From a virus (Duplodnaviria > Caudoviricetes), in the IMG/VR virus record IMGVR_UViG_3300020175_000007, positions 1-61,479 of that record: 61,479 nt of DNA, one strand, 5' to 3'. The notes below the pieces were generated by a model. It searched no databases, was not told where the DNA came from, and saw only the letters and a program-made list of their open reading frames with translations. The position numbers and the translations under genes are program-made. Shown here piece by piece: positions 1 to 59,302 of the stretch. The stretch's first letter is position 1; each line of letters opens with the position of its first letter.

Positions 1-160
1 GTTCATTACCATCATTCCATTCATCAAAATCAAAAAAATTATCTTCATTAGTTCCATCTTCATCTTTCCATCGTTCATAATAAGTTTCAAAATCACCCTC
101 TATGTTTTCTTTTAATAGCCTACCTTCAGCTAAATATTTTCTTAAATCAAAGTTATCCAT
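1..160 (-). CDS. Hypothetical acidic protein with MDNFDLRKYLAEGRLLKENI N-terminal signal (runs off the window edge)
   Basis: Not in the ORF track; translated by hand from the ATG at 160: MDNFDLRKYLAEGRLLKENIEGDFETYYERWKDEDG... The first 20 aa are identical to those of 172..693. Confidence 0.85.
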   Translation of the reverse strand, partial: MDNFDLRKYLAEGRLLKENIEGDFETYYERWKDEDGTNEDNFFDFDEWNDGNE

Positions 161-171
161 ATTATTTTTAT

Positions 172-693
172 TTAATCAAATCTTGTTCTTATGTCAGTTG
201 CTTCACCAGCTACTACTTTACCATTTTGTAAAAGAACAACTCCATTAGCTGAATCACCATCAGCTTCTGAATCGTTAATAAGTTTATTTAGTTCTTCATA
301 ATACATATCTAGATTATCTTCTATGTGCTTGTGAAAAACACTTTCCCAATTATCTCCAGCTGCATCTAATTCATCTTTAAGTCCAAATTTTCTTTCAAAG
401 TGTTCGATGTCCCAATAACCGGCAATGGTATCTTTTATATATTCTTCTTTACTATCAAAATTAGTATAATCAGGACCTTCATCATTCCAATATATCATTT
501 GGTACATTCCTGGTTTAAGGTCAATTATATATTCATCACTAAATTGTTCTTCCTCAGGTGAAGCATCATGTTCAGCTCTATTTCCTATATAAAGTTCTTT
601 ATAATCATCACGGCTGAGTATTGTAGCCATATCTATATTTTCTTTTAATAAGCGACCTTCAGCTAAATATTTTCTTAAATCGAAATTATCCAT
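172..693 (-). CDS. Hypothetical acidic protein, putative internal head protein with capsid-targeting-like N-terminus
   Basis: 173-aa ORF, D/E-rich, with N-terminus MDNFDLRKYLAEGRLLKE shared with the neighbouring gene. Confidence 0.75.
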   Translation of the reverse strand: MDNFDLRKYLAEGRLLKENIDMATILSRDDYKELYIGNRAEHDASPEEEQFSDEYIIDLKPGMYQMIYWNDEGPDYTNFDSKEEYIKDTIAGYWDIEHFERKFGLKDELDAAGDNWESVFHKHIEDNLDMYYEELNKLINDSEADGDSANGVVLLQNGKVVAGEATDIRTRFD

Positions 694-694
694 T

Positions 695-2059
695 TTAGTT
701 TATTTTTATCTTTAAATCGGTTATACCTTTATGTATTCTATGAATATCTCCTTCGTTAATAAATATACGATCTCCTTTTGATAGTAACAAAGGAAGTTTA
801 TTATCTAATTGTAATTTCCAACCTTCTCCTTCTAATACTTCTATTAAACGATCTTCTTTATCTGAATGCCATACTAAACTAGTAGGATCTACATCTTTTG
901 AAAATATTCTTATATTACCTTTATTTTCATATGGGTGGGTTGATTCATTTAATTCATCATCTGCCATTACTAAATCTTGACCATAAGTATACCATCCTCT
1001 ACCATCTTCATCAGCAATAAAATATCTATTACCTGATATTTGTGTTATTGTAAATACCTCACCTGGTGTTTCTTCGTAATCAGGTGTAAGCTTTACTCTA
1101 TCACCCATTTCAAAATTTTCATTTAATTGGCTTCTTAAAAGTGGTTTCCAATTATTCATTATTTGAGCTACTCCTTTTATAAATTCAGGATTTCTTAAAT
1201 CACCTTTAAATTTACCAAATAATGCTCTTAACTCTTCTTTAAATTGAGCTACTGATCCTGTTGGTTCAAATTTTTCGGAATCTGGATCCTCTGGGTTTCT
1301 ATTAAAACCACTATAACGGGTAACTTCATTTAATTTGAATCCTCTAATTTCATCATCTGTAAGTTCTCTACCTAAAGCTTTTTCAAATGCTTTAATCATT
1401 CCTACTTCAGTACTAGCTCCTCTTTTAAGTTGTTTAATAACTCTAATTAGTTCTTTTTTTGAAAAATCATAATTAACCATAGCTTCGTCTATAGACATAT
1501 TATCAATTTCATCACGAACCCATTCTTTTTCGTTTGAACCTAATTGATCATAATCCATTCCAAATTCCATATTTGCAACATCATCATATATGTCCATTTG
1601 TTCATTTACTGAAACAAACTGTTTACCTTTTTTACTACCTCTTACTTTTTTAGCTACAGTAGCTTTACGCTCTGCTTTAGTCATTGATTGAGCTTTTTTC
1701 TTAGGTAAACATCTTGTAGTAGCTTTATCTTTTTTCATTGTACCACAATCACCAGATATATTACCTGATGTATTAATTCTTACCCAATTTTCTTTTTTAA
1801 ACCAATCGCGTAAAGATTCAGCCATCTTGTCTACATTTAATTCTTTATATCCTGAACCATATGGAGCTGATTTTCCATCATGATTAGGGGCTGTATTTTC
1901 ATTTGCTTTTTTCTTACCACTCATTTGACCTTTACATACTTTTACAGCACGACCAGATAAATAAGCAGATGATTTTTCACCAGCAGCCATTCTACGTTTA
2001 CGGTAAGCTTCACCTTTTTTACAAAGTTTTTCTTTAACTAATTTTTTAATTTTATCCAT
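695..2059 (-). CDS. Mosaic multi-module protein: basic Cys-containing modules (DUF5872-like), short acidic modules, SH3-like module, C-terminal cupin-like domain
   Basis: Likely start is the ATG at 2059, overlapping the upstream stop (TAATG). Contains LRDWFKKENWVRI..CG..RCLPKKKA and a C-terminal LVWHSDKEDR..EGEGW..IHRIHKG cupin-like pattern. Modules end in ANE/VNE/IDE/LNE. Confidence 0.7.
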   Translation of the reverse strand: MDKIKKLVKEKLCKKGEAYRKRRMAAGEKSSAYLSGRAVKVCKGQMSGKKKANENTAPNHDGKSAPYGSGYKELNVDKMAESLRDWFKKENWVRINTSGNISGDCGTMKKDKATTRCLPKKKAQSMTKAERKATVAKKVRGSKKGKQFVSVNEQMDIYDDVANMEFGMDYDQLGSNEKEWVRDEIDNMSIDEAMVNYDFSKKELIRVIKQLKRGASTEVGMIKAFEKALGRELTDDEIRGFKLNEVTRYSGFNRNPEDPDSEKFEPTGSVAQFKEELRALFGKFKGDLRNPEFIKGVAQIMNNWKPLLRSQLNENFEMGDRVKLTPDYEETPGEVFTITQISGNRYFIADEDGRGWYTYGQDLVMADDELNESTHPYENKGNIRIFSKDVDPTSLVWHSDKEDRLIEVLEGEGWKLQLDNKLPLLLSKGDRIFINEGDIHRIHKGITDLKIKIN

Positions 2060-3828
2060 TACCAAAATGTATTCATGTTAGCACCTAAACCTAATTGCGA
2101 AGCGTATCTAGGCAAATTACAAGACCAATATCCTGCGGTTGTTCTATCTTTTTTATTTTTACAATTATGTCTTTTGGCAAATGCATTACGGGCTTGTTTA
2201 TTTTTAATTTTAGCTCTTAAACCACCTGATCCGAATGATACTTTTTTAATTTTTTTAGTTTTAGGATCTCTTACATAAACATAATATGCTTTAGATCCTC
2301 CTCTTTTAGGTTTACCTAATGGTGGATCTTTCTTTTTATTTTTATTTTCGTATAATTGTTTTACTATTGTACCTGCTCCTTTTATTTTTTTAGGTACTAA
2401 TTTATACCCAAATTCAGATACATAAGCACTATTTTTAACTCCATCTTTACTTGCTTTAGGTCCTGGTCCTAATGTAGCGCCAGGTCCTTCTTGTATTGGT
2501 GTTAATATATAATCACCATCTTTATGTTTTTTTACTTTAACTACTTTTTTAAGTAATTGAACTAATTCTTTTTTATTATATCCAAACTTTTTAACAGCTT
2601 TAATTAAAGGTTTTAAACCTGCTGCCCCACCTTCATCTTTTAAAGTTTGTCTAATTGCATTTTCAGCTTCTTTTCTTTTAGTTATATCTTCTTTTAATTC
2701 AGGAGAAGCAAATCTATCTAATTGTGTTTGATCTATGTCAATATCAAAAGGTGTTTTTTTAGATAAAATAGATGATAAGTAATCTATACTTACATCTAAA
2801 TCTTCTATATCACTTTCTCTATCTTCACCATCTCCTTCTATACTAATAAGTGTATCTAATATTTTTTGTAATATTCTATTTGATTCTTCATCTTCTTTTA
2901 ATATAGCTAAATCTTCTCTAATAGCTGATTCATTCATATCATACTGGTTAATTTGTTTTTTAACTCTGTATAATTTGTCTTCTAATTTATTTAGCATACT
3001 ACCATATCTATCAGCTATTTCTCCTCCTTCTGGCTCAGCTTCTTGCTCCATGTCTCTATATAGTTGAGCAATTCTATCTTCTAAATCTTTTTGTTCATCT
3101 CTTAAATACATAACATCTTCAAAATCCAATCCACCTCTAGATGGTTCTGGTTGTTTATCTCTTGCTGCTCTAGCTTTCATTACAACAGGATCATTCATGT
3201 TAATTTCATTAATTCCTGCATCTACAAAATCATCTGATACTGCGAATAATTGAATTTTACCATTTTCCATGTCTGTGATTTCAATGTCTTCTATATCATA
3301 TCTTGATTTTAAATTATCAGCTATTTTATTCATTTTCTGCATTGCAGCTGCAGCACCTAATCTTCTAATTTGACCTGACATTGTTTCTTTACCTAATGCT
3401 ATTACTGCTCCTTCTGGTGTAGGATAATCAATAAATACTTTTAAAAAGTTAGGATTATTTTTATCTTTAATATATCTAGGTTCGGATATTTTATCTTCTA
3501 TATCTATTTGTTCTGATAACATAGGTAAATCTAATGGTACTGATTCGCCTTCATATATTCCAAATTCACCTAAATGTGTTTTAACTAATGCTTTATCTTC
3601 TTCACATAAGTTAATTACATTACGTGAATATAATTTTCTTGCTTCTTTAATTAAGGATAAATGAGCATCTGAGCCAATACGATAAACTGATTCAAATAAA
3701 GGAATTTCTTTATCTATATGATATTGTAAACCTTCAGATAATGAAGATTTTATTTTAGTTTTGCTTTCAGTTAAAAGTGGTCCTTTTATTTCTGTTTCGC
3801 AAGTATTACATCCACATTTTTGACACAT
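2059..3828 (-). CDS. Mosaic multi-module protein with N-terminal Cys cluster and basic C-terminal domain (YYVYV..VSFG..RHNC..YWSC)
   Basis: 589-aa ORF. The C-terminal K/R-rich domain resembles small basic proteins of T4-like and other large phages (recalled family resemblance). Internal LTE/LSE/INE/LKE/IQE/LYE boundaries. Confidence 0.7.
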
Positions 3829-5341: not shown

Positions 5342-5796
5342 TATGCTTCTACGTCTACATCAACATCTACTTCGTCTTCGACTTCAGGTGTTGATTCGTT
5401 TTCACTTTCTTCTCCCTTAACATCTGCTCCACTATTTGTTCCATATTGAAGAATACGACCTATTGCTAATGCACAATTTTCTTCTTCATCTAAATTTAAT
5501 AGATAATATTTTTTACCTTCTACAGTAGCAATCCAACTTTTTTCAGTATACATTAAAAGGAAAGATTCCCCATTAAGTAATAAAATTCTAAATACTGTTG
5601 GTCTTGGAGAAACCCACTCTATATCTTCTAAAAAAGAATCAAATTCATGAGTTAATAAATCTACTATAACATCTTTAAGTAATGGAAACTTTGTTAACTC
5701 ATCATAAGCTACAGCAGCATCATTAGATACTGATTTTTCACTATATACTTTTTTTACAAGTACCTTTATTTTATCTCTTAGTTCTGTTGATGTCAT
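5341..5796 (-). CDS. Hypothetical phage protein with acidic tail
   Basis: 151-aa ORF, translationally coupled (TAATG) at both ends. Confidence 0.75.
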   Translation of the reverse strand: MTSTELRDKIKVLVKKVYSEKSVSNDAAVAYDELTKFPLLKDVIVDLLTHEFDSFLEDIEWVSPRPTVFRILLLNGESFLLMYTEKSWIATVEGKKYYLLNLDEEENCALAIGRILQYGTNSGADVKGEESENESTPEVEDEVDVDVDVEA

Positions 5797-6986
5797 TAGT
5801 CATTTTGTTTAGATAGAAATGAAGCTAAAGCCATTTGTTTAATTTTTTTTAAGGATTTACCTTTAAATTGTTTAGCATCTGATTTTTTAAAATCATCTAC
5901 ATGGTCTTCTACTGATGATTTTTTAGTAAGTTTTTCTCTAACTGCGGATTTTAATAAAGCTGATATTCCTGCTTGTGGTCTTTTTTTCAAACCTTTATCA
6001 TCGTTATCCATTTCTTTATTACCTTTTCTATCATACCCACCAACTTCATCTAAATAATTAACATCTTCTTTTTGTTTTAAAACAGTCATAATAGCAAATA
6101 TAGCATCTTGCTCTGAGTAGTCATATCTTTTAGCCATTGCTTTAATAAAAGCATTTACTTTTTGAGATACTTCTGGGTTAATTGCTTCATCTACTTTGCC
6201 TTTAGATAAATCTTTTGTTTTATCTTGTAGTATATTTGATTTAATTAAAAAATCAAGAACTTTAACATATGCATCTTGTTTTTTGCTATCTAATGTTCCT
6301 TGTTCTATTTGATTTCTAAGTGATTCTAGAGTATCTAAATCTTTTTGACCTAAACCATGACCTTCTTTTAAATCTTCTTTATCTTCTGATTTTACTAGAT
6401 CTCTTAAACTATTTAAGGCAACTCTCATTTTTGGGTTTTTTGAAAAATCCATAGTTTCTTTTTCTATCATTTGGTCATAAAAAGCAAGTATAGATTCAGC
6501 TGCTGTTTTAGCATCTTTAACTACACTATTATACTTAACCATTGTTGAAGCAGGTATTTCTACATTTTCTTCTGTTGGTGTTGGAACACCTGGTAGGAAA
6601 GTTGCTCTTCCAGATGGAGGAGTACTAGCTGCAGATTGTTCAATTTCGTCTTCTCCCCCTAAATATTTGTCTTCAGCACCATAATCAGCTCTACCTGAAA
6701 ATCCTGTGTCAACATCTATTTCTTGGCCACTTTCTGGTTCACCTAATGGGGTGGTATTAACAAATCCCTCTTTTTTAAGAAGGGATTGTTTAACTAATTC
6801 TCTGATTTTTTCTTTATTCATGCTTTCTACTTTATTTTTAGCTTGTTTAGTTGCTATACCATACATTACTTTTTCCGCATCCTTACCGTACTTTTTAACT
6901 AGTTTTCGTTTATTGGACATTAAACCTTTGATTGCTTCTTCTCGCTTTCCTAGTTCTCTTTCCGTAAGTTTACGTTCATTAAGCAT
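5796..6986 (-). CDS. Mosaic charged protein, putative internal head/scaffold-like protein
   Basis: Starts MLNE. Contains YGKDAEKVMYGIATKQAK and C-terminal DDFKKSDAKQFKGKS..MALA modules, with LKE/VDE/LDE/VRE boundaries. Confidence 0.7.
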   Translation of the reverse strand: MLNERKLTERELGKREEAIKGLMSNKRKLVKKYGKDAEKVMYGIATKQAKNKVESMNKEKIRELVKQSLLKKEGFVNTTPLGEPESGQEIDVDTGFSGRADYGAEDKYLGGEDEIEQSAASTPPSGRATFLPGVPTPTEENVEIPASTMVKYNSVVKDAKTAAESILAFYDQMIEKETMDFSKNPKMRVALNSLRDLVKSEDKEDLKEGHGLGQKDLDTLESLRNQIEQGTLDSKKQDAYVKVLDFLIKSNILQDKTKDLSKGKVDEAINPEVSQKVNAFIKAMAKRYDYSEQDAIFAIMTVLKQKEDVNYLDEVGGYDRKGNKEMDNDDKGLKKRPQAGISALLKSAVREKLTKKSSVEDHVDDFKKSDAKQFKGKSLKKIKQMALASFLSKQND

Positions 6987-6989
6987 GTA

Positions 6990-7748
6990 CTAATCTGTTC
7001 TATTGCCAACTACATATTCTCTAGTGAAAAATGTAATTGTATTTCCTATCTGATCTGCTAATTTGTCATTACCTAATTGACTTGCAGCATCCATAGCAGC
7101 TTTTAAAGAATCTTGTACTACTTCTTCTTCTGGTGATAAACCAACATCTATTGTTGCTTTAACTCCTGGTCTTTTAATTTCGATGTCATCAGCTTCAGCA
7201 TCTACTTCTACTTTATCTTCAACATCAATATCAACATCAACATCTTCTTCAGCTTCTGATAGTGTAGAAAGGATATTTTCTCTAATTTTAGCTTTAAGTT
7301 CAGATACTTTCATTTTTTTAAGTGCATTTTCAACGTCATCTTTAGCGTCATCAAATCCATCTTTATATCCTTCTTGTTCAGCATCAGTACGAGCATCTTC
7401 TGACATAGATTTTACGTCATCTTCTTCATATTTTTTACCATACATTTCATCAACAGTATCTTCTTCCATGTTTAAATCAACATTTTCTTTATTGATTTTA
7501 TTTTTACCAGGTCCTTTTGCTTTACCTTTTGCTTCAGCATCACGCTTACCAAATTTTCCATAAGAATCCTCTCTACGATCTTTCATAGATTGTTTTTTGT
7601 CTTTTTCAGCACCTTTACGCATGCCTAAAGATTCGTCTTCTCTATCGTCGTATCCTTGTTTTTTAGCTTCAGATATGATGTTAACCTTTTCAGCTTCATC
7701 ATTAATTCTGTTACTTTTTAAGTATTTTTTGTAATCAAAGTTGTCCAT
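6990..7748 (-). CDS. Highly charged protein, putative scaffold/internal head protein
   Basis: MDNFDYKKYL N-terminus, a variant of the 172..693 signal. K-rich then D/E-rich. Preceded by the late motif. Confidence 0.7.
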   Translation of the reverse strand: MDNFDYKKYLKSNRINDEAEKVNIISEAKKQGYDDREDESLGMRKGAEKDKKQSMKDRREDSYGKFGKRDAEAKGKAKGPGKNKINKENVDLNMEEDTVDEMYGKKYEEDDVKSMSEDARTDAEQEGYKDGFDDAKDDVENALKKMKVSELKAKIRENILSTLSEAEEDVDVDIDVEDKVEVDAEADDIEIKRPGVKATIDVGLSPEEEVVQDSLKAAMDAASQLGNDKLADQIGNTITFFTREYVVGNRTD

Positions 7749-7772
7749 TATGTATATTTTTATTTATAAATA

Positions 7773-8460
7773 TTAATTTTTTCTGTTAGAATTGCCCCCT
7801 CTAGAAGTACTCTTGACTCTAATGGTATTGCTTGAGGGCCTTACTGAAGAATTATTATAATTCACTGATGGTCTATTATAATTATTACTAGGTCTAGAAT
7901 TATTATTTCTAATAATAGGTTTATTATTATTAGGTTTTACTATAATATTATTACTATTATTGTTACTATTCCATGTAGGTTTATTTGTATTAACTACTGG
8001 TTTAGTTATAATTACCGGTTTTGTATTAACTCTTGGTTTAGTTGATGCTATCATTGAAGCTTGTCCTATTTTATCTTTTATAGACATTCTATTAGACTCT
8101 ATTAGAGGGCATCCAAGGTCTCATATACCAGTCCCAATGATTCCATGGTCTGTTAAAATATGAATAATAAGGATTATAATATGAATAATGATTACCATAA
8201 TAAAAATCAAAATCCATCCATAATGGTCTTGACCCCCAATATCCATAATTATGACCCCAATAAAATCTTGGTCTTAAAGGTCTAAAATCTAATGTAATTG
8301 TATTAAAATCTAAACTTGTAAATACATTTACTGAATCACCTTTAATTTCATCTAAATAAACTACATCAGTTTCACAACATTTGTCTACAGGTGCTAATTG
8401 GTAAGTACCACAACTATATAATAATATTATTACTAAAAAATATTTTATAAATTTTACCAT
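7773..8460 (-). pseudogene. Bacteroidota-style lipoprotein gene split into two ORFs (8092..8460 and 7773..8087) by a 10-bp insertion/duplication
   Basis: Lipobox LLYSC and a Tyr/Trp-rich body, followed by an N/S/R/P-rich tail in another frame. tctattaga is repeated at 8088-8096 and 8098-8106. Deleting 10 nt joins ...MPSNR to MSIKDK in frame. Confidence 0.6.
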
Positions 8461-9025: not shown

Positions 9026-9412
9026 TTATTGATCTATATCCATTGAATCATTATGATTTAATTCAATTCCTATATTATCAAATACAGGTACTAAATCTGC
9101 ATAGTAGGAAGAATCATAACCTTTTCCCCCAAAAGTAGAATCTACTTGAATTCCCAATTTATTAGCTACATAACGGATATCGTCATCATCAAATCTTCTT
9201 TCTCCCCTATAATCTTTTTCATCTTTAATAGTTAATTCATCACCACTTTCATCATATACTTGAATTTTATATAATCTACCAAAATCAGTATAAGTAAAAT
9301 CTATTTTAGAGATTAAAGGAATAATACCATCTATTTGAGATTGTATTTCATCACGAACCTCTTCCATCAGTTGGTTATATTTCCAAGAGTGTAAATTAAA
9401 ATTGTCTTTCAT
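9026..9412 (-). CDS. Hypothetical acidic protein with MKDNFNL N-terminal signal
   Basis: 128-aa ORF. The N-terminus resembles the MDNFDL family. Late motif 12 nt upstream. Confidence 0.7.
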   Translation of the reverse strand: MKDNFNLHSWKYNQLMEEVRDEIQSQIDGIIPLISKIDFTYTDFGRLYKIQVYDESGDELTIKDEKDYRGERRFDDDDIRYVANKLGIQVDSTFGGKGYDSSYYADLVPVFDNIGIELNHNDSMDIDQ

Positions 9413-9443
9413 TGTCTTACTTTATTATAAATATATGATTTTC

Positions 9444-10007
9444 TTATGTCTTTAATCCTTCTAAGTAGTCTATTACAGATTTTACATGCTCATCAACTTT
9501 ATCTTGATCTACTTTTCCTACCCATTTTTCAACATCTCCTTGTTCTGTAACAAAAGTATCATTTTCTTTTACTTTTTCTTTAATCCAAATTTTAAAATCT
9601 TTTATTTTATTATCGATTTCATTATTTTTTATTTTTCTAGTATATTCATCATAATCGCCCTTTATCATCATTTTGGTTTCCATATCAGTAACACAATCAT
9701 GGCATTTTTTATGGATTTGATAAAATGCTTTATGATTAGAATGATTCATTATTCTATTACATTCTGGGCATAATAAAGGCATTACGTGTGCTTTTTTAGC
9801 AGAATCTAACTTAGTTATATTTTGTTTTATACCTTTTTTAATAGTCCATTTACGACCATCTTCTTCCCAAATATCTCCCTCTTCATGAAATTCAGCTGCT
9901 TTTTTGTAACCTACTCCTATAGTTGTTTTATTACCATATTTACCTGTTACTAAATTTCTAAGACGTTCAACATCTTTTCTTTTAAATTCTTTTTTTAATT
10001 TTGTCAT
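9444..10007 (-). CDS. Hypothetical protein with Zn-binding CxxC...CxxC motif
   Basis: CPEC and CHDC motifs in a 187-aa ORF. Confidence 0.7.
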   Translation of the reverse strand: MTKLKKEFKRKDVERLRNLVTGKYGNKTTIGVGYKKAAEFHEEGDIWEEDGRKWTIKKGIKQNITKLDSAKKAHVMPLLCPECNRIMNHSNHKAFYQIHKKCHDCVTDMETKMMIKGDYDEYTRKIKNNEIDNKIKDFKIWIKEKVKENDTFVTEQGDVEKWVGKVDQDKVDEHVKSVIDYLEGLKT

Positions 10008-12109
10008 AAACCTAATTTTTTAAGTTGTCTAATAGTATCAGCAGTGGATGTATGTAATATACCAACTCCTCCTCGGGAAACCCACTGATCTATGTTAGAC
10101 TTTCTATCATCAATTAATATGTGATTAGGAGCTGCGTATTTTTGTTTATCTGCTGAGTAAGCCAATGTTAATTTTACACCAGGCATATTATTTCTAACCC
10201 ATAATCTTTTACCTAATCTTGAAGATTCTGATCTTGATGGTGAAGATAATAATTCAACATCATAATCCTTAATATAATTCCAATATTGTTCTCCATCAGA
10301 CATATAAGGCATTCCTACCCAAAATCCTACTCCTTTGCTATCAATTAATTCCCAAAACTTATTAATTCCAAACTTTTTTTCATAATCTCTAGGTGCTATA
10401 CCATCTGATGCCTTTTTAAATGATTCATCAAAATCTGTTATTACACCATCCATATCCGAAAATATTTTATATTCCATATCATCTTCTCTTAACGTTGCTA
10501 ATTCACGAGCATAAGCATTTAAACCAAAGGGATCTTTAACTTTTGGTTGATCTTCATCTAAAAAGCTAGCTTCAGCATTTTCTGCTTCAGGAGCATTTAT
10601 TTCATATTCTTCATTTAAACTATCAGTCCAATTTCTAAATGTCATTGTACCCCTTAAATTAGCTTCTTGTTCTAATTTGTCTAAATGGTCATCTTCTGTT
10701 GTATTTGTACTAGATATATTGCCTAATCTATCCTCTAAATATTGAATATGATGAATCATTTCATGTGCAAATGAACGTACTATATCTTTAGGATGTCGCC
10801 CCTCAGTATATAACACAATAAGTTGTTCATCTGGGCTATAATACGCTGTTTTACCGAAAAAATCGCGTGCATTTTCACTATCACCATCAACAAATCTTAC
10901 TTTAGGTAAAGGTTTAATATTCATGCCTTTATCTAACATATGTTTAGTTAACTGAACTATTTTCTTTTTAAAGTTTATATCTTTAGAATATGAAGCATTT
11001 TCATTTAAACGTTTCCAACCAGGAGAGTATTTAGGAGTATTATCATGATCACATTTATGACAAATATATAAATCATCACCACCATCTTTAATTTTCCAAG
11101 ACCAATCACAATTATCACATTCAATTTTATCACCTATAATTGCTTCATTTAATGGTTTACCTATTTCATATGGTATATCTTTTTCTTTTAAAGCATCTTC
11201 ATATTCTTCATCTGGTTCAGGTAATACTACTTTGATTATATATTTAGATAAATTTATAATATCTGTATCAATTACCTCTTCCATTTCATCATATTGACTT
11301 ATCTCTTCATAATCAGGGTTATCTGAGGTGTCTTTAAATGGTCTAATTTTATATTTAGTACGTAATTTATCTTTATCAAGAATAAAATAGGGTTGATCTC
11401 CTAACCATTCTGCAGCATATGAGTCTAAACTACGAGTTAAACTTATGGGACCCCTTAATATGTTATCATCTAAAACATCTGATAGGTATTGGGTAAAATG
11501 GTATAAAACACCAAATTGTGGACCTTCATTTAAATTTTCATTTAAATTATTAGTTATTATATTATATACTTCTACTGCTTCTTTATCTGATATTACAGAT
11601 GGTAATAATGGTGTAAGTTTTTCAATTGAAATATTTGCAGCATTTCTTGCTGCTGTACCTGAAGCCCCTGTTGTTGTAACAGTAACTGCTAAAGCAATAT
11701 TTGGATAATTATTTATAGCTTTAGTTCTAGAAGCTATATCACCAAAATCTTCTTCATCACCTTCTCTAGCTCCTATTATCCATAAAACATTAGTTTCAGG
11801 ATTATTTTTAGCATAGTTATAAACTGCTTTTATAGGGGGAGTTGATGTTGGTATTAATTCAACTTTTAATGGTAAATAATTTGCATAAATTTCCCATACA
11901 AGTAAAGATTGAGCTTGAGTTATACCACCTCTTTCTTTTTTACCTATATAAATTAATAATTCATCTATATCTGGGTGTTCTTCTAATGCTTGTTTTATAA
12001 CTTGAAAGTGGCCTTTAGTTGGGGGTTTAAATCCTCCAGCATATATAGCTACAGTTTTTTCTTCATCTTCAGGCAATAAACCTTTAAGTATTTCGTCTAC
12101 TAATTTCAT
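10004..12109 (-). CDS. Polyprotein: cytidyltransferase-like NTase, ADP-ribosyltransferase-like module, Zn ribbon, HExxH zincin, HAD 5'(3')-nucleotidase
   Basis: Motifs in order: YAGGFKPPTKGH (HIGH-type NTase); LYHFT..ISLTRS..DEMEE (ART-like); CDNC..CHKC; FAHEMIHHIQ..EQEAN; IFSDMDGV..LIDDR (NT5C-like HAD). Confidence 0.8.
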   Translation of the reverse strand: MKLVDEILKGLLPEDEEKTVAIYAGGFKPPTKGHFQVIKQALEEHPDIDELLIYIGKKERGGITQAQSLLVWEIYANYLPLKVELIPTSTPPIKAVYNYAKNNPETNVLWIIGAREGDEEDFGDIASRTKAINNYPNIALAVTVTTTGASGTAARNAANISIEKLTPLLPSVISDKEAVEVYNIITNNLNENLNEGPQFGVLYHFTQYLSDVLDDNILRGPISLTRSLDSYAAEWLGDQPYFILDKDKLRTKYKIRPFKDTSDNPDYEEISQYDEMEEVIDTDIINLSKYIIKVVLPEPDEEYEDALKEKDIPYEIGKPLNEAIIGDKIECDNCDWSWKIKDGGDDLYICHKCDHDNTPKYSPGWKRLNENASYSKDINFKKKIVQLTKHMLDKGMNIKPLPKVRFVDGDSENARDFFGKTAYYSPDEQLIVLYTEGRHPKDIVRSFAHEMIHHIQYLEDRLGNISSTNTTEDDHLDKLEQEANLRGTMTFRNWTDSLNEEYEINAPEAENAEASFLDEDQPKVKDPFGLNAYARELATLREDDMEYKIFSDMDGVITDFDESFKKASDGIAPRDYEKKFGINKFWELIDSKGVGFWVGMPYMSDGEQYWNYIKDYDVELLSSPSRSESSRLGKRLWVRNNMPGVKLTLAYSADKQKYAAPNHILIDDRKSNIDQWVSRGGVGILHTSTADTIRQLKKLGL

Positions 12110-12894
12110 TAAATTAAAAATTGTCTAAGTTTTCCTTGTGCTTCTTCTTTAGAAACTGAATTATCAATTATATTTGCTACTGCTTCATCTGAAAGTAAAG
12201 CTGTAATTTCTTTATTTGCCTTTTCTTTTTGTTTAGCTGAATATGCTGCTCTAGCTGGTGATTTAGGTTTAGTATCTTTAGGTGAATAAGGTTTTAAATA
12301 TTTATCTACTATTGCATCTAATGATCCTAATTTTTCATCTTCTAAAGTATTAGAAACAGAAACAAAATTTTCACCAAAAGCATTTTTATATTCATCATAA
12401 TTTTTAGTTACACTACCCCAAGTACGTAATACAATAGCAGGTGCTAAACTTCTATCTTCACCATCCGATTTTTCAAACCTATCTTGGTTTTGTTTTAATG
12501 AACGTTCTAAATCAGTATAAACATAAAGCATAAATACTTCATATCCTGCTTCTTCTAATTCATCTTTTAATTTCATTGTTTGTTTAGATGATGAAGCTGT
12601 TCCATCTAATATAAATGATTCTTTACCTTCAATTGTAGTAGCTATATCACCTTTAAATTGTTTATTAGCATCGGCCATTGCTTTAGCTTGTTTACTTCTT
12701 TCTTCAGGTGTTGCATTTTTTAAATCTAATGAAACATTTGCTTGTTTAAGCATATCAATGTAGATATTATCAATATTCATTATTTTTAAACCTCCTAAAT
12801 TTAAACCTTTTAAGACATATCCTTTACCTGCACCTGGTGCTCCTGCTAGTATAATAGCTTTAGGGCTACCCTTTATTTCGTTAATTAATTCCAT
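12109..12894 (-). CDS. P-loop kinase, zeta-toxin/AAA_33-like
   Basis: Walker A GAPGAGKG, FILDGT and a LKQNQDR lid region. Leader MELINE. Confidence 0.75.
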   Translation of the reverse strand: MELINEIKGSPKAIILAGAPGAGKGYVLKGLNLGGLKIMNIDNIYIDMLKQANVSLDLKNATPEERSKQAKAMADANKQFKGDIATTIEGKESFILDGTASSSKQTMKLKDELEEAGYEVFMLYVYTDLERSLKQNQDRFEKSDGEDRSLAPAIVLRTWGSVTKNYDEYKNAFGENFVSVSNTLEDEKLGSLDAIVDKYLKPYSPKDTKPKSPARAAYSAKQKEKANKEITALLSDEAVANIIDNSVSKEEAQGKLRQFLI

Positions 12895-12926
12895 ATTATA
12901 ATATTATATGTTATAAATATGAATGT

Positions 12927-16381: not shown

Positions 16382-16402
16382 TTATACGTTTTATTATAAA
16401 TA

Positions 16403-17170
16403 TTAGGAGGATCTTTTTACTGTAGTTTTAAATGAAGTTGTTGCAGGTTTATGTTTTGGATTTTCAATATCAAATATACTTTTTACTGATTTATAAATAT
16501 CTATATTTTCTTCTTGTGTTCTTGGTGATTCATATACTTCCCAATTTTTACCTTTTAAACGCTTACCAGAATTATCTACACCTCTAGATTTTGATTTTAA
16601 CCATAATACACCTACTCTATCAGCTGTTTTACCAAAACATTCTTTGTAACATTGAGCGTATGCTGCTCCTTGTAAATCATAAGTAGTTTGTAAATGATTT
16701 GATGTTTTAAAATCTAAAACCCATAATTCATCATCTATTTCACAAATTAAATCACAAGTACCAGCTACTTTAAGTTCTTCACTAAATAAATGTACTTCTG
16801 TTTCAATTAAGGTAGGGTTATGTGTTTCCCAAAAATCAACAAATCTTAAAAACATTTGCCAAACTAAAGGATCCATTTTAGGATAACCCTCTTTATTAAG
16901 ATAAGTTAATTCTGTACCTGTAAAGTATTCTTCAATCATTTCATGTACTTTAGTACCTTCTTCACTTGCTTTTTTAACAATCCAGTCAGCTGAATGGCCT
17001 ACTTTTTTAAGCCAATCCTGAAAGTATTTACCTTTTGGGTAACAGTTTAAAACATAAGTAATAGAGGGATAAAATTCACCATTACGTCTGTAGTACCTTG
17101 AATCAGGTAAAGTAATTTGTTTGTGGTCATCAGAAATTTCTAAAATTCTGTTATACGATTTTTTTATCAT
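16403..17170 (-). CDS. PD-(D/E)xK phage exonuclease (RecB/Cas4-like fold)
   Basis: YPSIT, GTKVH, E..L.S..AGTCD, LDFKTS, Q..AYA motifs. Confidence 0.85.
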   Translation of the reverse strand: MIKKSYNRILEISDDHKQITLPDSRYYRRNGEFYPSITYVLNCYPKGKYFQDWLKKVGHSADWIVKKASEEGTKVHEMIEEYFTGTELTYLNKEGYPKMDPLVWQMFLRFVDFWETHNPTLIETEVHLFSEELKVAGTCDLICEIDDELWVLDFKTSNHLQTTYDLQGAAYAQCYKECFGKTADRVGVLWLKSKSRGVDNSGKRLKGKNWEVYESPRTQEENIDIYKSVKSIFDIENPKHKPATTSFKTTVKRSS

Positions 17171-18107: not shown

Positions 18108-18139
18108 TCAATATATGAAATTATTTGCTGGTATCCAAA
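18108..18139 (-). promoter_or_regulatory. Bacteroidota-type promoter TTTG-N20-TATATTGA upstream of primase
   Basis: Exact 20-nt spacer; ends 5 nt before the ATG. Confidence 0.6.
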
Positions 18140-18648
18140 TTATTTAAATCGTTTGGATCTATAAAATCTTTTCTATAAAATTTACCTAAAATATTATCAT
18201 TAATATGAGTACTATACTTATTTTCTAATACCTCATTTCTAAATAAATATTTGGTTTCATAATATGTAAGTAATTTTTTATTAGGAACAAATTGTAATAT
18301 ATGTTTCTCCCAATTTTCACCGGCATTATCTTCTTTAGATAAAGCAAGAATTTCTTTTTGTGAACCAAAATAATCTTTCCAATCAGATTCAGTTATTACC
18401 TTTTGTTTAATAGGAACTCTACCTCTTAATCCCTTTTTAGCTCTTTCTTCTCGTAAAGCTTCTAAAGCCTTTTTACCTAATCGTTTATTTCTTTCAAAGA
18501 AAAGGACTTTTTTTCCAATGTATCTTACGTCTGTTGGTTTATATACTACTTCATATATAAATCCGTAAGTACCTTCTGGCATATCCTTTATTGATGTTAT
18601 AACCCTTCCCTGGTAAGTCCAGGTAGCGGTTGTTGGCATATATCCCAT
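18121..18648 (-). CDS. GIY-YIG-like (Seg-type) endonuclease family protein
   Basis: YGFIY...RYIGKK...WKDYFGS...YE..N motif. Confidence 0.7.
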   Translation of the reverse strand: MGYMPTTATWTYQGRVITSIKDMPEGTYGFIYEVVYKPTDVRYIGKKVLFFERNKRLGKKALEALREERAKKGLRGRVPIKQKVITESDWKDYFGSQKEILALSKEDNAGENWEKHILQFVPNKKLLTYYETKYLFRNEVLENKYSTHINDNILGKFYRKDFIDPNDLNNLDTSK

Positions 18649-21647: not shown

Positions 21648-24600
21648 TTATTTAATTTTATTTTCCAGTTCTTTTACTTTATCATTTAGTTCTTTAACTG
21701 CTTCAATTAATACTGCTACTAATCTATCATATTTAACGGCTTTATATCCATTTTCTCTATTATCAACTATTTCTGGAAATATTGCTTCTACTTCTTGAGC
21801 TATAATACCTACATCATGTCCTTCATTAGCATGTATTTCTTTATTTTTATTAGCTTCAAATTCTTTCCAATCAAATGTAACACCATTTAACATACTTACT
21901 TTTTCTAAAGCATTTGGTATATTTACTATATTAGTTTTTAATCTTCTATCTGATGAATAGAAGGCTATTACATCATTTGTAGCTCTAATTAATCCAGTAG
22001 TAGTTGTAGCTGTAGTACCACCAACAATTAAACCACCACCACTAAAGAACATATAACCTTCATCAAGTCCCATTAATCCATTTCCACCAAATCCATTAAC
22101 TCTAAAACCAGTATCATCATCATCAATATTATATACTAAGTTTCCACCAGATGGTCCTATACTAAATGGAAGATCTGCATAATTTAATTTAGTACCACTA
22201 AATAATAAATTTGCTTCAGCATTTAAAGTAACACCACTTACTGATGTCATTACCCTATTACTACCAGCATTAGTTATTGTTGCAGTACCACTTGTTCCAC
22301 TTGAACCTGATGAACCTGAAGATCCTGATGTTCCTGAAGAACCTGATGTACCCGCAATTGTTATACCTGATGTACCTGATGAACCACTTGTTCCATCAGA
22401 ACCTGGATCACCTTGTTGACCACTTGTACCTGAAGATCCTGATGTTCCTGAATTACCAGATGATCCTGAAGTTCCTGAATTACCAGATGATCCTGATGTA
22501 CCACTTGAACCTGATGAACCTGATGAACCACTTGATCCAGAAGAACCTGAATTACCTGAAGTTCCTGATGAACCTGATGTACCACTGTTTCCACTTGAAC
22601 CTGATGTTCCTGAAGATCCACTAGATCCTGAAGAACCTGAGTTACCTGATGTTCCTGAAGTACCATTAGCACCTGATGAACCACTTGTTCCATCTGATCC
22701 TGAAGATCCTGAAGATCCTGATGAACCTGAATTACCACTAGTTCCTGATGAACCACTTGTACCAGATGAACCTGAAGTACCTGATGATCCACTTGAGCCA
22801 GAATTACCTGATGTACCTGAGCTTCCACTTGTTCCTGAAGAACCTGATGTTCCAGATGAACCAGATGAACCACTAGATCCACTTGAACCACTTGATCCTG
22901 ATGAACCTGATGTACCCGAGGATCCACTTGTTCCTGCATCACCTGTTACTACAAAGGCACAAGTTACATCTTCTCCATCTGAAAATGGTGAAGCTGCTGA
23001 ATATGCACTATTTGTTACTGATAATGTCCACCAACCTGTATTATCTTCTGTATTTGTTATAGCAAATAATAAGAATTGTGTTGCATCTGTTCTATTAGCT
23101 ATTCTAATATGTCCTTTAACAGCTGATGTTGCTGAATCAATTGTTGATAAAAATGACTGTATAGAAGTACCATCATCATCAGTTATATCTATATAAACAT
23201 TTGTAGAATTTCTTTGTGTTGCGTTATTTAATCTTACTTGTCCTGTTCCTGGATCTGTAGCTGATGTGCTTGTATCGAATGTATAATCAAAAGTAGCACC
23301 ACCAAACGAACCATCTGCTCCACTTGAACCTGAAGATCCACTTGAACCACTTGAACCTGATGAACCACTTGATCCTGATGATCCTGATGATCCTGATGAA
23401 CCACTTGAACCACTAGAACCTGATGAACCACTTGATCCTGATGTTCCTGAAGAACCTGAAGTACCTGAAGATCCACTTGATCCAGAATTACCTGATGTAC
23501 CTGATGAACCACTAGATCCTGAATTACCACTTGTTCCTGATGATCCACTTGTACCACTTGTTCCTGAAGAACCTGAAGTACCTGAAGATCCACTTGAACC
23601 TGAATTACCACTTGTTCCTGATGAACCTGTAGCTCCTGATGAACCTGAAGTACCACTAGATCCACTTGTTCCACTTGATCCTGATGAACCACTTGATCCA
23701 CTTGAACCTGAATCACCAATTCCACCTGAAGTTCCTGATGAACCACTTGTACCATCTGAACCTGATGATCCTGATGAACCTGAGTTACCTGATGTTCCAG
23801 ATGTTCCCGATGTTCCTGAAGAACCTGATGTTCCTGAAGAACCACTTGAACCTGAATTACCTGTAGCTCCTGATGAACCTGAAGTACCATCTGAACCACT
23901 TGATCCTGACGAACCACTAGAACCTGATGAGCCACTTGTTCCTGATGAACCAGATGTTCCTGAAGATCCACTAGATCCACTTGAACCACTTGATCCTGAA
24001 GATCCTGATGATCCAGAAGAACCTGATGAACCACTAGATCCACTTGAACCTGAAGTACCACTTGAAGCTGCTGCTTCTTTTGTACCTACTCTACCATCTG
24101 TATCTACAACTAATACTGTGTTGTCTGATATACCTGGTAGTGCTGTTAATTCCATATGTGCAAATGAAGCTGTAGTAGTTGATGTACCTTCTAATCTACC
24201 ATCTACACTAACTAAACCTGAACCACTAACAGATAATATTGGAACACCTGATATGTCAGATGCTGCAAATACTGTTCCTGTTAAATCATCTGTTACTGAA
24301 AATAATTGCCCTTGACTTCCTTGAACGTCAAAAACTGTTTTAGTTGGATCAGCTGCTGCTGAACCTGATACTGTTAATTTTGTTGAAGCTGAAAATATTA
24401 AATTAGGATTTGCTGTTAATTCACCTGATACTCCTGTAGCAGTTGTTACTCTATAAATTACATTATTTGCAATTGTAGCTACACCACTTGTTCCTGATGA
24501 ACCCGAAGATCCACTTGTTCCTGATGTACCTGATGAACCACTTGTACCTGAAGATCCACTTGATCCTGATGAACCTGAAGATCCACTTGAACCTGATGTT

Positions 24601-27600
24601 CCTGATGAACCACTAGTTCCTGATGAACCACTACTTCCAGATGAACCATCTGTTCCTGCTGTACCTGTTGTACCTGAAGTACCTGATGATCCACTAGTTC
24701 CACTTGAACCTGAAGTTCCTGAAGAACCACTTGATCCTGAATTACCACTTGTTCCTGATGAACCTGTAGCTCCTGATGAACCTGAAGTACCATCTGAACC
24801 TGATGAACCTGAAGAACCACTAGAACCTGATGTTCCTGAGCTACCACTAGTTCCGCTTGATCCTGAAGATCCATTTGAACCTGAAGAACCTGATGAACCA
24901 GATGATCCGCTTGTTCCACTTGAACCTGATGTTCCTGAATCACCTGTTACTACAAAGGCACAAGTTACATCTTCTCCATCTGTAAATGGTGTTGCTGTTG
25001 AAAAAGCTTCATTACTTAATTCTAATGTCCACCATCCTGTATTATCTTCTAAGTCACTAATAGCAAATAATAAGAATTGTGTTGCATCTGTTCTATTAGC
25101 TATTCTTATGTGACCCTTAACTGCTGATGTTGATGAATCTACCGTTTCTAAGAACGATTGTATAGAAGTACCATTATCATCCGTTATGTCTATGTACCCT
25201 GCTGTTGAATTTCTTTGTACTGCTTGGTTTAATCTTACTTGTCCTGTTCCTGGATCTGTAGCTGATGTGCTTGTGTCAAAAGTATAATCAAATGTAGCAC
25301 CACCAAATGAACCATCTGCTCCTGATGAACCTGAAGATCCACTTGAACCACTTGATCCACTAGTACCACTTGAACCACTTGATCCTGATGAACCACTTGA
25401 TCCTGATGAACCTGAAGAACCAGAAGTACCTGATGAACCACTAGATCCACTTGTACCATCTGAACCACTAGATCCACTTGATCCTGAAGATCCTGAATTA
25501 CCTGATGTTCCTGAAGATCCTGAGGATCCTGAAGTACCATCTGTTCCACTTGTTCCTGATGAACCTGAAGTTCCTGAACTTCCACTTGAACCTGATGAAC
25601 CTGAATTCCCTGATGTACCTGAACTACCACTTGTACCTGAAGAACCTGATGTTCCAGATGAACCATCTGAACCTGATGTTCCTGAAGCACCTGAAGATCC
25701 TGAAGTTCCATCAGTACCATTTGAACCTGATGTACCAGAAGTACCTGATGATCCACTTGTTCCTGATGAACCTGATGTTCCTGAAGATCCTGAAGAACCA
25801 TTTGAACCACTTGTACCTGATGAACCTGAAGATCCATCTGCTCCTGAATATGAAATAGAAACTAATAATGTATCTTCATCTGTAAATGGTGTTGTTGCAG
25901 ATGCTCCTATTTGAGTAACAGCAGCTGTTGTAAATGTACCACTATCAGTAGTATTTCCTACTAAAAATTGTATAAATTTTGTATTATCGTATAATTTTGA
26001 TATTGCTAAAACATCTCCTGATTCGAAAGTTGCTCTAGTATTTCCATCTGAATCTATCTCAGATATTTTTATTTGAGTTGCTGATGCTTGAGTATTATTA
26101 TTCATTACTATACCACCACTACTTGGGTCGGAATAGTTTATATTATATGTAAATGGATAAGTTAATCCACCATAGTTACCTGAGTTACCACTTGATCCTG
26201 AAGTACCACTAGAACCACTTGATCCACTAGATCCTGAAGATCCTGATGAACCAGAAGATCCAGATGAACCACTAGTTCCTGAAGAACCATCTGTTCCTGC
26301 TGTACCTGAAGTACCTGAAGTACCTGAAGAACCTGAAGTACCATCTGTTCCTGTTGTTCCTGAACTTCCAGATGTTCCATCTGAACCTGAAGATCCTGAA
26401 GATCCTGATGAACCACTAGTTCCTGAAGAACCTGATGTACCATCTGATCCACTTGTACCTGAAGATCCACTTGAACCTGAACTACCACTTGTTCCATCTG
26501 AACCTGATGAACCACTACTTCCTGAAGTACCACTAGAACCACTTGATCCTGATGAACCACTTGATCCTGAAGAACCTGAAGTACCTGAAGTTCCTCCAAT
26601 TACAAATCCTATAAAAATATCATCTCCATCTGCAAAAGGATCAGTACCACTTATTGATAAAACTGAACCTGGGATTCTAGCATATGTTGCAGCTGTTGTA
26701 ACTGGTCCAGTACATTGAAATGTTAAAAACAGTTCGTCAATTTTTTCTCTAATTGTTAAAATAGTATTTTCTGTAACACTATTTATAGGAAAAGTATTAC
26801 CCTCTGCATCTGTATTATTAATCCATATTTGAGTTGCATCACCCTGTGTAGCATCATCTAACCTAATTACTCCTGTTCCTGGATTACCTGTTATTTCTGT
26901 TGAAAAATCATATAAATAGGTGTTAGGTGCTATAATAGTTTGTCCTGAACTTCCACTTGTTCCTGATGAGCCACTTGTTCCACTTGATCCTGATGAACCT
27001 GAAGATCCACTTGAGCCACTTGTTCCATCTGATCCTGATGTTCCTGAATCACCTGAAGTTCCTGATGAACCACTAGTTCCTGAAGAACCACTAGTACCAC
27101 TTGAACCACTAGATCCACTTGTACCATCTGAACCTGATGATCCTGAACTACCTGAAGTTCCATCTGAACCACTTGTACCTGTATCTCCACTTGTTCCTGA
27201 AGAACCTGAAGTACCTGAACTACCACTTGAACCACTTGTTCCATCTGATCCTGAAGATCCTGATGAACCACTTGATCCAGATGAACCTGAAGTACCTGAA
27301 TCACCAGTTACTACAAAAGCACAAGTTACATCCTCTAAGTTTGTAAATGGTGATCCCGTTGAAAATGCTTGCCCTGCTATATCAATTACCCACCAATCTC
27401 CTTGATCTTCTAAATCTGATATTGAGAATAATAAAAATTGTGTTGCATCCGTTCTATTAGCTATTCTTATGTGACCTTTAATAGCTGAGGTAGAACTGTC
27501 TATTGTTTGTAAAAAGGATTGAATGTCAGTTCCATCATCATCCGTTCCACTAATATAAGCTGCTGTTGAATTTTTTTGATTTGTTGAATTATTTAATGCT

Positions 27601-31300: not shown

Positions 31301-31806
31301 CCTGAAGTACCTGATGTACCACTAGTTCCACTTGTTCCTGAAGAACCTGAAGTACCACTTGTTCCTGAAGTTCCTGATGTTCCTGATGAACCTGAAGATC
31401 CACTTGTACCATCATCTCCTCTATCACCTGTAGTAACAAAAGCAACTACAATATCTTCTGCATTTGAAAATGGTGAAGCCTCTGAAAATGATTGATCATT
31501 TATATCTATTGTCCACCAACCTGTATTATCTGTTAAATCAGATATACTAAATAATATAAATTGGGTTGCGTCTGCTCTATTTGAAATTCTTACGTGTCCT
31601 TTAACTGCTGATGTAGACGCGTCTATTGATTCTAAAAATCCTTGTATTGTTACTCCATTATCATCTAAAATGTCAATATACATTTCAGTTGATGTGTTTT
31701 GAGGAGTATCATTTAATCTAATTAATCCTGTTCCTGGATCTGCTCCTACAGTTGAATCTGAGAATGTGTAGTCAAATGCTGCACCTCCAAATGAACCATC
31801 TGCTCC
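22938..31806 (-). repeat. Five close copies of a ~128-aa globular domain (GADGSFGGATFDYTF...AFVVTGD) across both fibre genes
   Basis: Approximate copies at 22938-23321, 24939-25322, 27300-27686, 29928-30311 and 31423-31806. Confidence 0.9.
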
Positions 31807-34738: not shown

Positions 34739-34762
34739 AGTGATTATTTGTTATAAATATTG

Positions 34763-37419: not shown

Positions 37420-37487
37420 GTTGTGTTTTTATATAAATATTGTTATATATGTTATAAATATGATAAAAGTAAATATTCTTATCATTA

Positions 37488-51071: not shown

Positions 51072-51126
51072 TATATTACTGTATTTGTTATAAATATGGG
51101 ACCTAAAAGGGGTATATATATTTGTA

Positions 51127-57292: not shown

Positions 57293-57313
57293 AATCTATT
57301 TTGATTATAAATA

Positions 57314-57508
57314 TTACTCTTTATCTAATTCCGCAAGTTCCTTTTCAATGTCCTTTTTCATTTCTTGGAGTTTAGCATATTCTACCTTAACATCCTGAGC
57401 TTCTTCATTATCAGGGTGAAACCTCCAATAGTCTTCTATTATAGTAATAGTAGCCATTAAGTCATTTACTAATTCAGATTTTTTATTATCTAATTCTTCT
57501 TTATTCAT
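57314..57508 (-). CDS. Small hypothetical protein
   Basis: 64-aa ORF in the operon. Confidence 0.65.
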   Translation of the reverse strand: MNKEELDNKKSELVNDLMATITIIEDYWRFHPDNEEAQDVKVEYAKLQEMKKDIEKELAELDKE

Positions 57509-57523
57509 TTTATTTAATTTTAA

Positions 57524-57994
57524 TTATTTATAATTTTTACCTATGTCTTTTACTGTTTTTTTCACTTCTTCTAACTCAATTTGAAAAAATTCCCTTTGGT
57601 TATTAACGCGATACTTTTTTAATGCATGATGTACTTCGCCCTCTAATAGTTCGCCGTTAAAACAACGGTATGCCCATGCTACTTCATATGGAAGTGGCAC
57701 ACCTGTTGCATTAGAAATTTGTTTAGCTCGCTCATCTGGTGTAAGTTTTGTATATCCTATTTTTAATAATCCTGGGGTAGCTTCATTTTTTAAAACATAA
57801 ACCCATTGATCTCCTTTACCACGATTTGAAAATAAATTAAGTTTTTTTGCTGTATAATAAGTTACATCTTCCCAACCCTTTCTTTTAAGGGAGGGAGTTA
57901 ATGTAAAATATTCTGCCGCTTCTACGGTCTTATTAGAATGATTGTCTTTAAGAGCAATATATTCTTTTGCTTGTTCTAATGTTATTCTTTCCAT
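57524..57994 (-). CDS. T5orf172/GIY-YIG domain protein
   Basis: VYVL..PGLLKIGYT..ERA..ATGVPLP..E..VH..L...R..REFF. Confidence 0.85.
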   Translation of the reverse strand: MERITLEQAKEYIALKDNHSNKTVEAAEYFTLTPSLKRKGWEDVTYYTAKKLNLFSNRGKGDQWVYVLKNEATPGLLKIGYTKLTPDERAKQISNATGVPLPYEVAWAYRCFNGELLEGEVHHALKKYRVNNQREFFQIELEEVKKTVKDIGKNYK

Positions 57995-59279: not shown

Positions 59280-59302
59280 AATATAATTTTATTATAAATA
59301 TG

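Follow-up and report, generated by a model that had tools for sequence, protein, structure and literature searches.

A marine far-T4 phage protein built of shuffled small modules with Glu-ending motifs at the junctions: a candidate head-internal polyprotein

The prohead protease of phage T4, gp21, cleaves after Glu at L/I-x-E, and Asp at the P1 position blocks the processing (PMC9026906). The T-even internal proteins are diverse and have only their targeting sequence in common (PMC3012670), and the first 10 residues of IPIII suffice as a capsid-targeting sequence (CTS) for the head (PMC9026906). In T4 Alt the cuts are at ITE-6 and LTE-619, and the gp21 homologues of giant phages cut at A/S-x-E (PMC5694885). 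In another described system, the polyvalent proteins, several unrelated domains share one phage polypeptide, the architecture varies strongly among orthologues, and the predicted fate of the domains is delivery alongside the DNA and release by proteolytic cleavage (PMC5512222). Here, we analyze a mosaic string protein of 454 amino acids (aa) encoded in a phage contig of 61,479 bases (IMG/VR record IMGVR_UViG_3300020175_000007), which is called the window below and is a fragment estimated to be ~38% complete.

The 454-aa protein is composed of a short leader and seven or eight small modules (M1–M8, Table 1). We give a probability of about one half to the reading that it is a head-internal polyprotein that would be cut at its junctions by a gp21-type protease inside the prohead. 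This reading is favoured because the junction motif matches the documented gp21 specificity, is specific to the junctions and is kept across unrelated neighbours, and because the same motif recurs at the ends of short shared leaders. It is favoured also because the enzyme is found in every relative tested, the locus lies near the head genes, and motifs of this kind occupy conserved positions in the relatives' own head proteins. Finally, the predicted local distance difference test score (pLDDT) is low or lower at the M2 linker and the C-terminal junction in a structure model.

The window represents part of a far-T4 marine myophage, whose nearest relative in culture is Flavobacterium phage immuto. 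It is syntenic with a complete relative of 163,571 bases (G002), as 37 of the 59 window open reading frames (ORFs) match in conserved order. The window has ~30% G+C and almost all of its genes are on the minus strand. They include myovirus baseplate genes (gp25-like and Baseplate_J), a primase and nucleases. The ATG of the string gene overlaps the TAA stop of an upstream 589-aa ORF as TAATG, and all seven junctions of the 454-aa ORF are in frame without a stop codon.

The charge flips between the modules, the pI swinging between 10.4 and 4.1 along the chain (Table 1), as had been noticed in a first-pass annotation made from the DNA letters. The module edges that it located are exact, with ANE at 1898–1906, VNE at 1601–1609, and LNE at 1325–1333, 1118–1126 and 944–952. 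The seven junctions read VKE, ANE, VNE, IDE and three LNE. [LIVMA]NE occurs 6 times in the 454 aa against ~0.9 expected from the window rate (0.197 per 100 aa; 38 in 19,336 aa). Five of the six stand at module edges, and the sixth, INE at residues 434–436, is inside M8.

The protein as a whole matches no Pfam family at E≤0.01, and per-module Pfam scans gave weak matches only. Its PHROG matches are confined to residues 78–150, where M3 matches phrog_23735 (E=5.6e-11, profile positions 4–68 of 81) and also phrog_14910, both made of small phage proteins of unknown function. The cupin-like label earlier put on one block agrees weakly with Cupin_2 (PF07883), which M8 matches at E=0.0015 with 18.7 bits, under the 27.2-bit cut-off. 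A precomputed PF07883 hit is present on 6 of 120 listed stand-alone M8 homologue clusters. The basis of the SH3-like label for another block is a single-sequence model of low confidence, with four short strands.

The modules are not bound to one order. A word-indexed protein search gave 3553 proteins at E≤0.001 among 8000 scored candidates, of which 120 are listed. Colinear homologues had been named as the outcome that would speak against modularity, and among those 120 only one, P0002, is colinear over the full length (454 aa, 95% identical, from another assembly; a cluster of 12 member sequences). Partial copies of 91–98% identity also come from other assemblies. Mapped back to the query, the listed homologues have modules deleted, inserted and reordered. 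P0005 fuses residues 1–161 directly to 312–454, P0004 has a block resembling 172–326 before residues 49–161, P0077 places 242–326 ahead of 49–149, and P0107 has 8–51 at its C-terminus.

The trimmed ends of similarity (224 high-scoring segment pairs, HSPs) cluster at residues 9–12, 51–60, 149–153, 187–192, 243–249, 312–319 and 368–372. Thus, seven of the eight edges proposed in the first-pass annotation are similarity breakpoints (10, 54, 153, 192, 245, 314 and 372). The eighth, MAE-81, is not, since the sequence downstream of it is the same in 97 homologues and different in 2. The MAE (79–81) is contained in the M2 linker, which travels with M3. Stand-alone M3 copies begin MTQERLQEIIQE-SLRDW, so the Glu of MAE-81 lies within the first, N-terminal helix of M3.

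An exhaustive HMMER search gave 2137 cluster representatives (50% identity clusters) at E≤0.001 and 606 at 1e-10, so the module family is large, and nearly all of it is unannotated. Each of the listed matches is limited to one or two modules, in proteins of 99–2154 aa. At 76 IMG/VR loci, 27 architectures were seen among the 200 ORFs with one module or more, and the stand-alone ORFs there include 33 of M8 and 30 of M3. A separate search for each module had been suggested in advance, and the modules are indeed found alone and in other orders. They are drawn from a pool common to the lineage of marine far-T4 myophages.

M3, the most widespread module, stands alone in a 78-aa gene of phage C75C1 and a 96-aa gene of G002. 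A 99-aa protein (P0265) spans query residues 181–246 in the M5 region, and a 108-aa protein (P0147) spans 221–317 in the M6 region. M7 is alone in Methylophilales phage Venkman as gp8 (62 aa, 51% identity). A short-protein search with residues 315–454 gave 318 matches at E≤0.001, most of the listed ones being complete at 81–83 aa. The stand-alone M8 genes begin M-(N/H)-P-Y, and the fused form reads LNE-ST-HPY. M8 is alone in immuto (gp098) and Methylophilales phage Melnitz (gene 19), in each coming after a shorter string gene, and in most relatives it is a separate gene right after the string gene. The string proteins of these two cultured phages are gp099 of immuto, whose junctions include PMVDE and ELDE, and that of gene 18 in Melnitz, whose junctions include PMME.

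M3 is found also at the extreme C-terminus of four much longer proteins with few xNE, P0245 (2154 aa), P0255 (1562 aa), P0236 (1156 aa) and P0164 (1016 aa). None of the four has a Pfam match, and P0255 has no match in the phage database. They are possibly internal virion proteins from phages of other types.

At the junctions, we examined homologues that share the upstream module but have different downstream sequence, and scored Glu at the query's junction Glu together with an aliphatic residue two positions before. This hydrophobic-x-E motif is kept at junction 153 in 82 of 88 such homologues, at 245 in 27 of 27, at 314 in 54 of 56 (31 of 32 distinct downstream contexts) and at 372 in 32 of 32. 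At junction 192 the downstream sequence differs in 12 homologues and is shared in 4, and the motif is kept in 10 of the former. By distinct downstream context, which reduces the non-independence, the five junctions keep it in 66 of 70. The background that the first-pass annotation had proposed to compare with is 3.2% of positions in the same proteins. P1 stays Glu and P3 is L, I, V or M, while P2 varies (N, K, D, E, S, R). Junction 54 keeps its Glu in 19 of 24 contexts, with T, A or K at P3.

Judged from these alignments, the motif is a property of the junction rather than of the module, because terminal M3 and M1 lack the motif and internal M3 has it. Terminal M3 ends GKQFVKNTKKA...KK (52 contexts), and internal M3 usually ends GKQFVSV[NKD]E (26 of 36). 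M1 forms the C-terminus of other strings in 37 ORFs, there without the xNE tail and ending in a lysine run, GKKKK. [LIVMF]NE is weakly enriched in the G002 proteome (best P=0.0095), so Asn at P2 appears to be a preference of this genome's string genes and not a lineage rule.

At the leader edge, similarity begins at residues 9–12 in 47 homologue HSPs with different upstream sequence, and the leader site, when aligned in 75 homologues, reads I/V-K-E in 52 and has P1 Glu in 72. When M1 is internal, the residues before it still end x-x-E (IIKE, YLKE, VNE), and in small proteins it is preceded by similar leaders. The 10-residue leader is a candidate capsid-targeting propeptide.

Two other origins of the LNE were rejected. 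As a relic of a TAA-ATG stop-start in TTA AAT GAA, its frames do not fit; the stand-alone M8 genes follow their upstream genes in other frames or by the TAATG overlap. As a mutated stop codon, K, Q, L, S and Y would be expected as often, yet Glu dominates.

The same junctions can be read as parts of an uncleaved multidomain protein, like a small polyvalent protein, whose modules act tethered and whose motif is a linker or helix cap or else a recombination joint. Phage multidomain proteins of variable architecture are known and not all are processed (PMC5512222), an identical 9-nucleotide sequence TTAAATGAA at three junctions could aid microhomology-mediated recombination, and the cleavage is so far predicted only. 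However, P1 is Glu in ~95% of the heterologous junctions and P2 and P3 vary in both codon and residue, unlike a DNA-level joint. The terminal modules without the motif, the free switching of modules between fused and separate genes, and the short N-terminal leaders ending in the same motif, which would be senseless as linkers, also speak against a permanently joined chain, which we consider less likely than a cut one but the strongest of the alternatives.

The head genes of the relatives would provide the enzyme for the predicted gp21-type cleavage. In G002 the head cluster consists, in order, of terminase, portal and three unknown genes, then the Peptidase_S77 protease and the acidic scaffold, and last the capsid protein. 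The latter is gp23-like, 60% identical to immuto's and ~27% to those of the T4-like coliphages. Peptidase_S77, the T4 gp21 type, is in 10 of 10 related IMG/VR contigs tested (E 1e-29 to 1e-32) and in immuto and Melnitz, the cultured phages with fused strings. It is absent from both of the small phages with stand-alone modules only (Venkman and C75C1). By the synteny with G002, the head cluster of the present phage would lie beyond window position 1.

In relatives, the string locus is 12–20 kb from the head genes. Their protease has LIE at residues 5–7 of its N-terminus and then LNE or LTE near residue 20. Their major capsid protein (MCP) has QLV(M/V/T)E immediately before a variable segment.

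In the proposed mechanism, the string chain would be made together with the structural genes and enter the prohead, possibly through the 10-residue leader. The prohead protease of the T4 gp21 type (Peptidase_S77) would then cleave the chain after every junction Glu. The products would be internal-protein-like units of 5–11 kDa, some of them very basic, that would stay with the DNA and perhaps be injected. As the products would be separated after translation, any module order would be tolerated, and this tolerance would account for modules being shuffled freely and trading places with stand-alone genes. We infer the packaging, the cleavage, the injection and each module's function. The earlier suggestion of a polyprotein releasing small peptides thus agrees with the modularity, the junction motif and the gp21-type protease of the relatives, but units of 4.7–11 kDa, a folded-domain size, are not peptides. 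Basic modules may condense DNA and others may act on the host, as was also proposed there.

Several observations pull the other way. No Peptidase_S77 match is within the window, itself a fragment, and the link of S77 to fused strings is confounded by phylogeny and genome size, with 12 genomes having S77 and 2 not. The homologue counts are of non-independent events, and A, T or K at P3 of junction 54 is not aliphatic and is a poor fit to the published T4 motif. Hydrophobic-x-E triplets are numerous within modules too, so the motif alone is insufficient to define the sites. The stand-alone M8 and M7 genes have no leader, so these two modules can work without head targeting, and two phages carry stand-alone modules without S77. 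Our literature searches found no proteomic data on cleavage or virion presence for any relative.

Structure predictions bear on one part of the chain. AlphaFold2 without an alignment gave a mean pLDDT of 41 for the full length, which is unusable for the question of one unit versus beads, and in the full-length alignments, including MAFFT ones, the mosaic relatives leave residues ~160–330 at a depth of 1–5. With a clean 29-row alignment, residues 55–153 gave a mean pLDDT of 72, with 80–92 in the core of 82–146 and <50 in the linker of 55–75, and the confidence declines toward the VNE end. Foldseek with this model found no solved structure in the PDB at E≤0.001 and, among viral models, one uncharacterized phage protein (E=3e-4). 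The weak rows among viral models were DUF5872, DUF6321 and a 'virion protein' of Synechococcus phage S-SCSM1. Residues 72–153 in the ESM Atlas fall in virus-only unnamed clusters, one with DUF5872 on 14% of it. No function of M3 follows from these fold searches.

Another protease could cut the chain in place of the prohead one, for example the zincin-type HEMIHH domain of a nearby 701-aa string protein or a host Glu-specific protease, acting in the cytoplasm or after injection. The 701-aa ORF does have a conserved HExxH segment and is itself built of LNE-separated modules, and the stand-alone modules that lack a leader point to action in the cytoplasm. Embedded metallopeptidases are moreover predicted to release the domains of polyvalent proteins (PMC5512222). 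Yet a Pfam search at E≤5 assigns the HExxH segment to no peptidase family, the motif fits the documented gp21 specificity, and S77 is in every relative tested. We know of no cut-after-Glu specificity for HExxH-type domains, and consider such a protease quite improbable. The long ORF being an artefact, an assembly chimera or sequencing error that fused small neighbouring genes, is next to negligible despite the metagenomic contig and the separate M8 gene directly after the string gene in most relatives, because nearly identical and partial copies come from other assemblies, hundreds of other in-frame fusions share the junction motif and the seven junctions are in frame with no stop.

With the gp21-type cleavage in the prohead, a broader picture can be drawn tentatively, though we consider it somewhat less likely than not. 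Marine far-T4 phages might carry a combinatorial effector system, in which dozens of small modules are strung in hypervariable polyproteins bounded by prohead-protease sites. One leader would load any combination, the maturation protease would free the beads, and these would be injected along with the DNA as a quickly re-assortable set of DNA-binding and host-directed (anti-defence) proteins. The protease site would serve as a universal splice point that makes the exon-like shuffling selectively neutral.

Table 1. Features of the string locus and its surroundings (window positions; aa, amino acids)
Feature	Position	Strand	pI	Description
Mosaic string protein gene	695..2059	-		454 aa; ATG at 2059, stop codon 695-697
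N-terminal leader	2030..2059	-		residues 1-10, ends V-K-E (residues 8-10)
M1	1898..2029	-	10.3	residues 11-54 (KLCKKGEAYRKRRMAAGEKSSAYLSGRAVKVCKGQ...), basic, 2 Cys, ends ANE
M2	1817..1897	-	5.6	residues 55-81 (NTAPNHDGKSAPYGSGYK...), conserved low-confidence linker
M3	1601..1816	-	10.4	residues 82-153, basic, 2 Cys, ends VNE
M4	1484..1600	-	4.1	residues 154-192, acidic, ends IDE
M5	1325..1483	-	9.2	residues 193-245, helical, basic, ends LNE
M6	1118..1324	-	8.3	residues 246-314, ends LNE
M7	944..1117	-	4.1	residues 315-372, acidic all-beta, ends LNE
M8	698..943	-	6.4	residues 373-454, cupin-like terminal module
Partner gene, 589-aa string protein	2059..3828	-		same module pool, TAATG overlap with the 454-aa gene
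ATATGTATAA, one-mismatch copy of ATATTTATAA	3842..3851	-		in the 22-nt gap preceding the 589-aa gene
701-aa string ORF	10004-12109	-		five LNE junctions, HEMIHH (zincin-like) segment
Kinase-domain ORF	12109-12894	-		Zeta_toxin/AAA-type, E=3e-18; starts MELINE (six residues)
ATATTTATAA copies	7764-7773, 9425-9434, 12911-12920, 16394-16403, 28405-28414	-
ATATTTATAA copies, continued	34751-34760, 37452-37461, 51088-51097, 57305-57314, 59292-59301	-

The partner 589-aa protein is joined with the 454-aa one in some relatives, such as P0012 and P0033, where a single ORF contains its first and last modules along with M1–M7. Its residues 445–494 share 66% identity with a stretch of the G002 gene that lies between the portal and the prohead protease. 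A tblastn search with this 50-aa module found no match in cultured phages.

Similar leaders head other genes of the window. The ORFs 2–160 and 172–693, adjacent and otherwise unrelated, carry the leader sequence MDNFDLRKYLAEGRLLKE and share a 20-residue leader MDNFDLRKYLAEGRLLKENI. A leader common to unrelated proteins is also seen in the T4 CTS. A 79-nt direct repeat of 86% identity (window 99–177 and 632–710) encodes MDNFDLRKYLAEGRLLKENI and the upstream region. Variants of the MDNFDLRKYLAEGRLLKENI leader head ORFs 6990–7748 and 9026–9412 and also genes in G002 and immuto. ORF 5796–6986 starts MLNE, and the MELINE start of the kinase-domain ORF recalls the ITE-6 propeptide of T4 Alt.

The 701-aa ORF has a cytidylyltransferase-like N-terminus, an unknown module, a zinc ribbon, the HEMIHH module and a 5'-3' deoxyribonucleotidase, with LNE between them. 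Its zinc ribbon stands before the HExxH module here and after it in the G002 homologue, and in some relatives occurs between M1 and M3.

The exact ATATTTATAA has 12 copies in the window, all on the coding strand, and 11 of them are in short intergenic gaps 12–40 nt upstream of a start codon. It precedes the tail-fibre and baseplate genes. ATATTTATAA is probably this phage's promoter element, perhaps a late one. The T4 late promoter TATAAATA was rejected as such an element, as it is not enriched (27 found versus 18.8 expected).

Other genes of the window deserve mention. A 104-aa ORF (7773–8087, minus strand) has a very low-complexity sequence with many Asn, Ser and Pro residues (...NSNNNSNNIIVKPNNNKP...) and no G002 homologue. 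Two giant collagen-repeat fibre proteins of 2240 and 1961 aa are encoded at 21648–34317 (minus strand), the first ending in a Peptidase_S74 chaperone domain, and the local G+C is ~40% versus ~30% elsewhere. A 2837-aa ORF (37488–46001, minus strand) has no Pfam or PHROG match, but is 34% identical over 1113 aa to a syntenic 2722-aa G002 protein beside the baseplate genes. A SegE-type GIY-YIG endonuclease (18121–18648, minus strand) and a T5orf172 domain protein (57524–57994, minus strand) lie amid replication and structural genes, and are probably mobile genes of the homing-endonuclease type.

If the junctions of the 454-aa protein are cut, a tailed double-stranded DNA phage would use a polyprotein strategy. 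This would explain how small injected proteins are swapped, added and dropped regardless of the order or reading context. The rule of cutting after aliphatic-x-Glu would also resolve many long hypothetical ORFs of marine phages into defined small products. A full-text literature search found no prior description of such module strings, with supplementary files, which may hold architectures or peptides, outside its coverage.

The polyproteins of RNA viruses are alike in that a single translation product contains several functional units with protease sites between them, which are predicted ones here. They differ in that here no protease is embedded, the virus is a double-stranded DNA tailed phage and the unit order is not fixed. 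Closer in the cleavage are the inner-body and ejection proteins of phages phiKZ, 201phi2-1 and SPN3US, which are cut after Glu at S/A-x-E or A-x-E by a diverged gp21 homologue, sometimes at several sites (PMC5694885, PMC9026906). The ANE/TNE junction at residue 54 resembles this motif. However, those cuts strip propeptides from large proteins in another lineage, and no serial release of independent shuffled modules is described for them.

The polyvalent proteins are alike in architecture. They have two to fifteen unrelated domains (PMC5512222), and the strings here have seven or eight modules and vary among 27 architectures. Their hallmark conflict domains, such as MPTase, ART, ParB-like, kinases, methylases and others, are all absent from the 454-aa protein by the Pfam scans, and the Zeta_toxin domain and the HExxH segment are in neighbouring ORFs only. 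The Zeta_toxin-type kinase family is reportedly among those listed for polyvalent proteins. The string differs by its tiny units and by a uniform short motif that fits a prohead protease, not an embedded peptidase, and no such junction motif is described in the parts of PMC5512222 available.

The T4 internal proteins IPI, IPII and IPIII, together with Alt, are alike in several respects. They are small, often basic proteins with a short shared leader that ends in aliphatic-x-Glu (PMC3012670, PMC9026906, PMC5694885), they vary highly between related phages, and a gp21-family protease is encoded, in the relatives in our case. The internal proteins are similar in size to the modules, and they and Alt have no sequence similarity to the 454-aa protein by Pfam match. 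Each T4 internal protein has its own gene and one maturation cut, or two in Alt. The string here instead has up to eight units per ORF, with a predicted site between each, and these are reshuffled among genomes.

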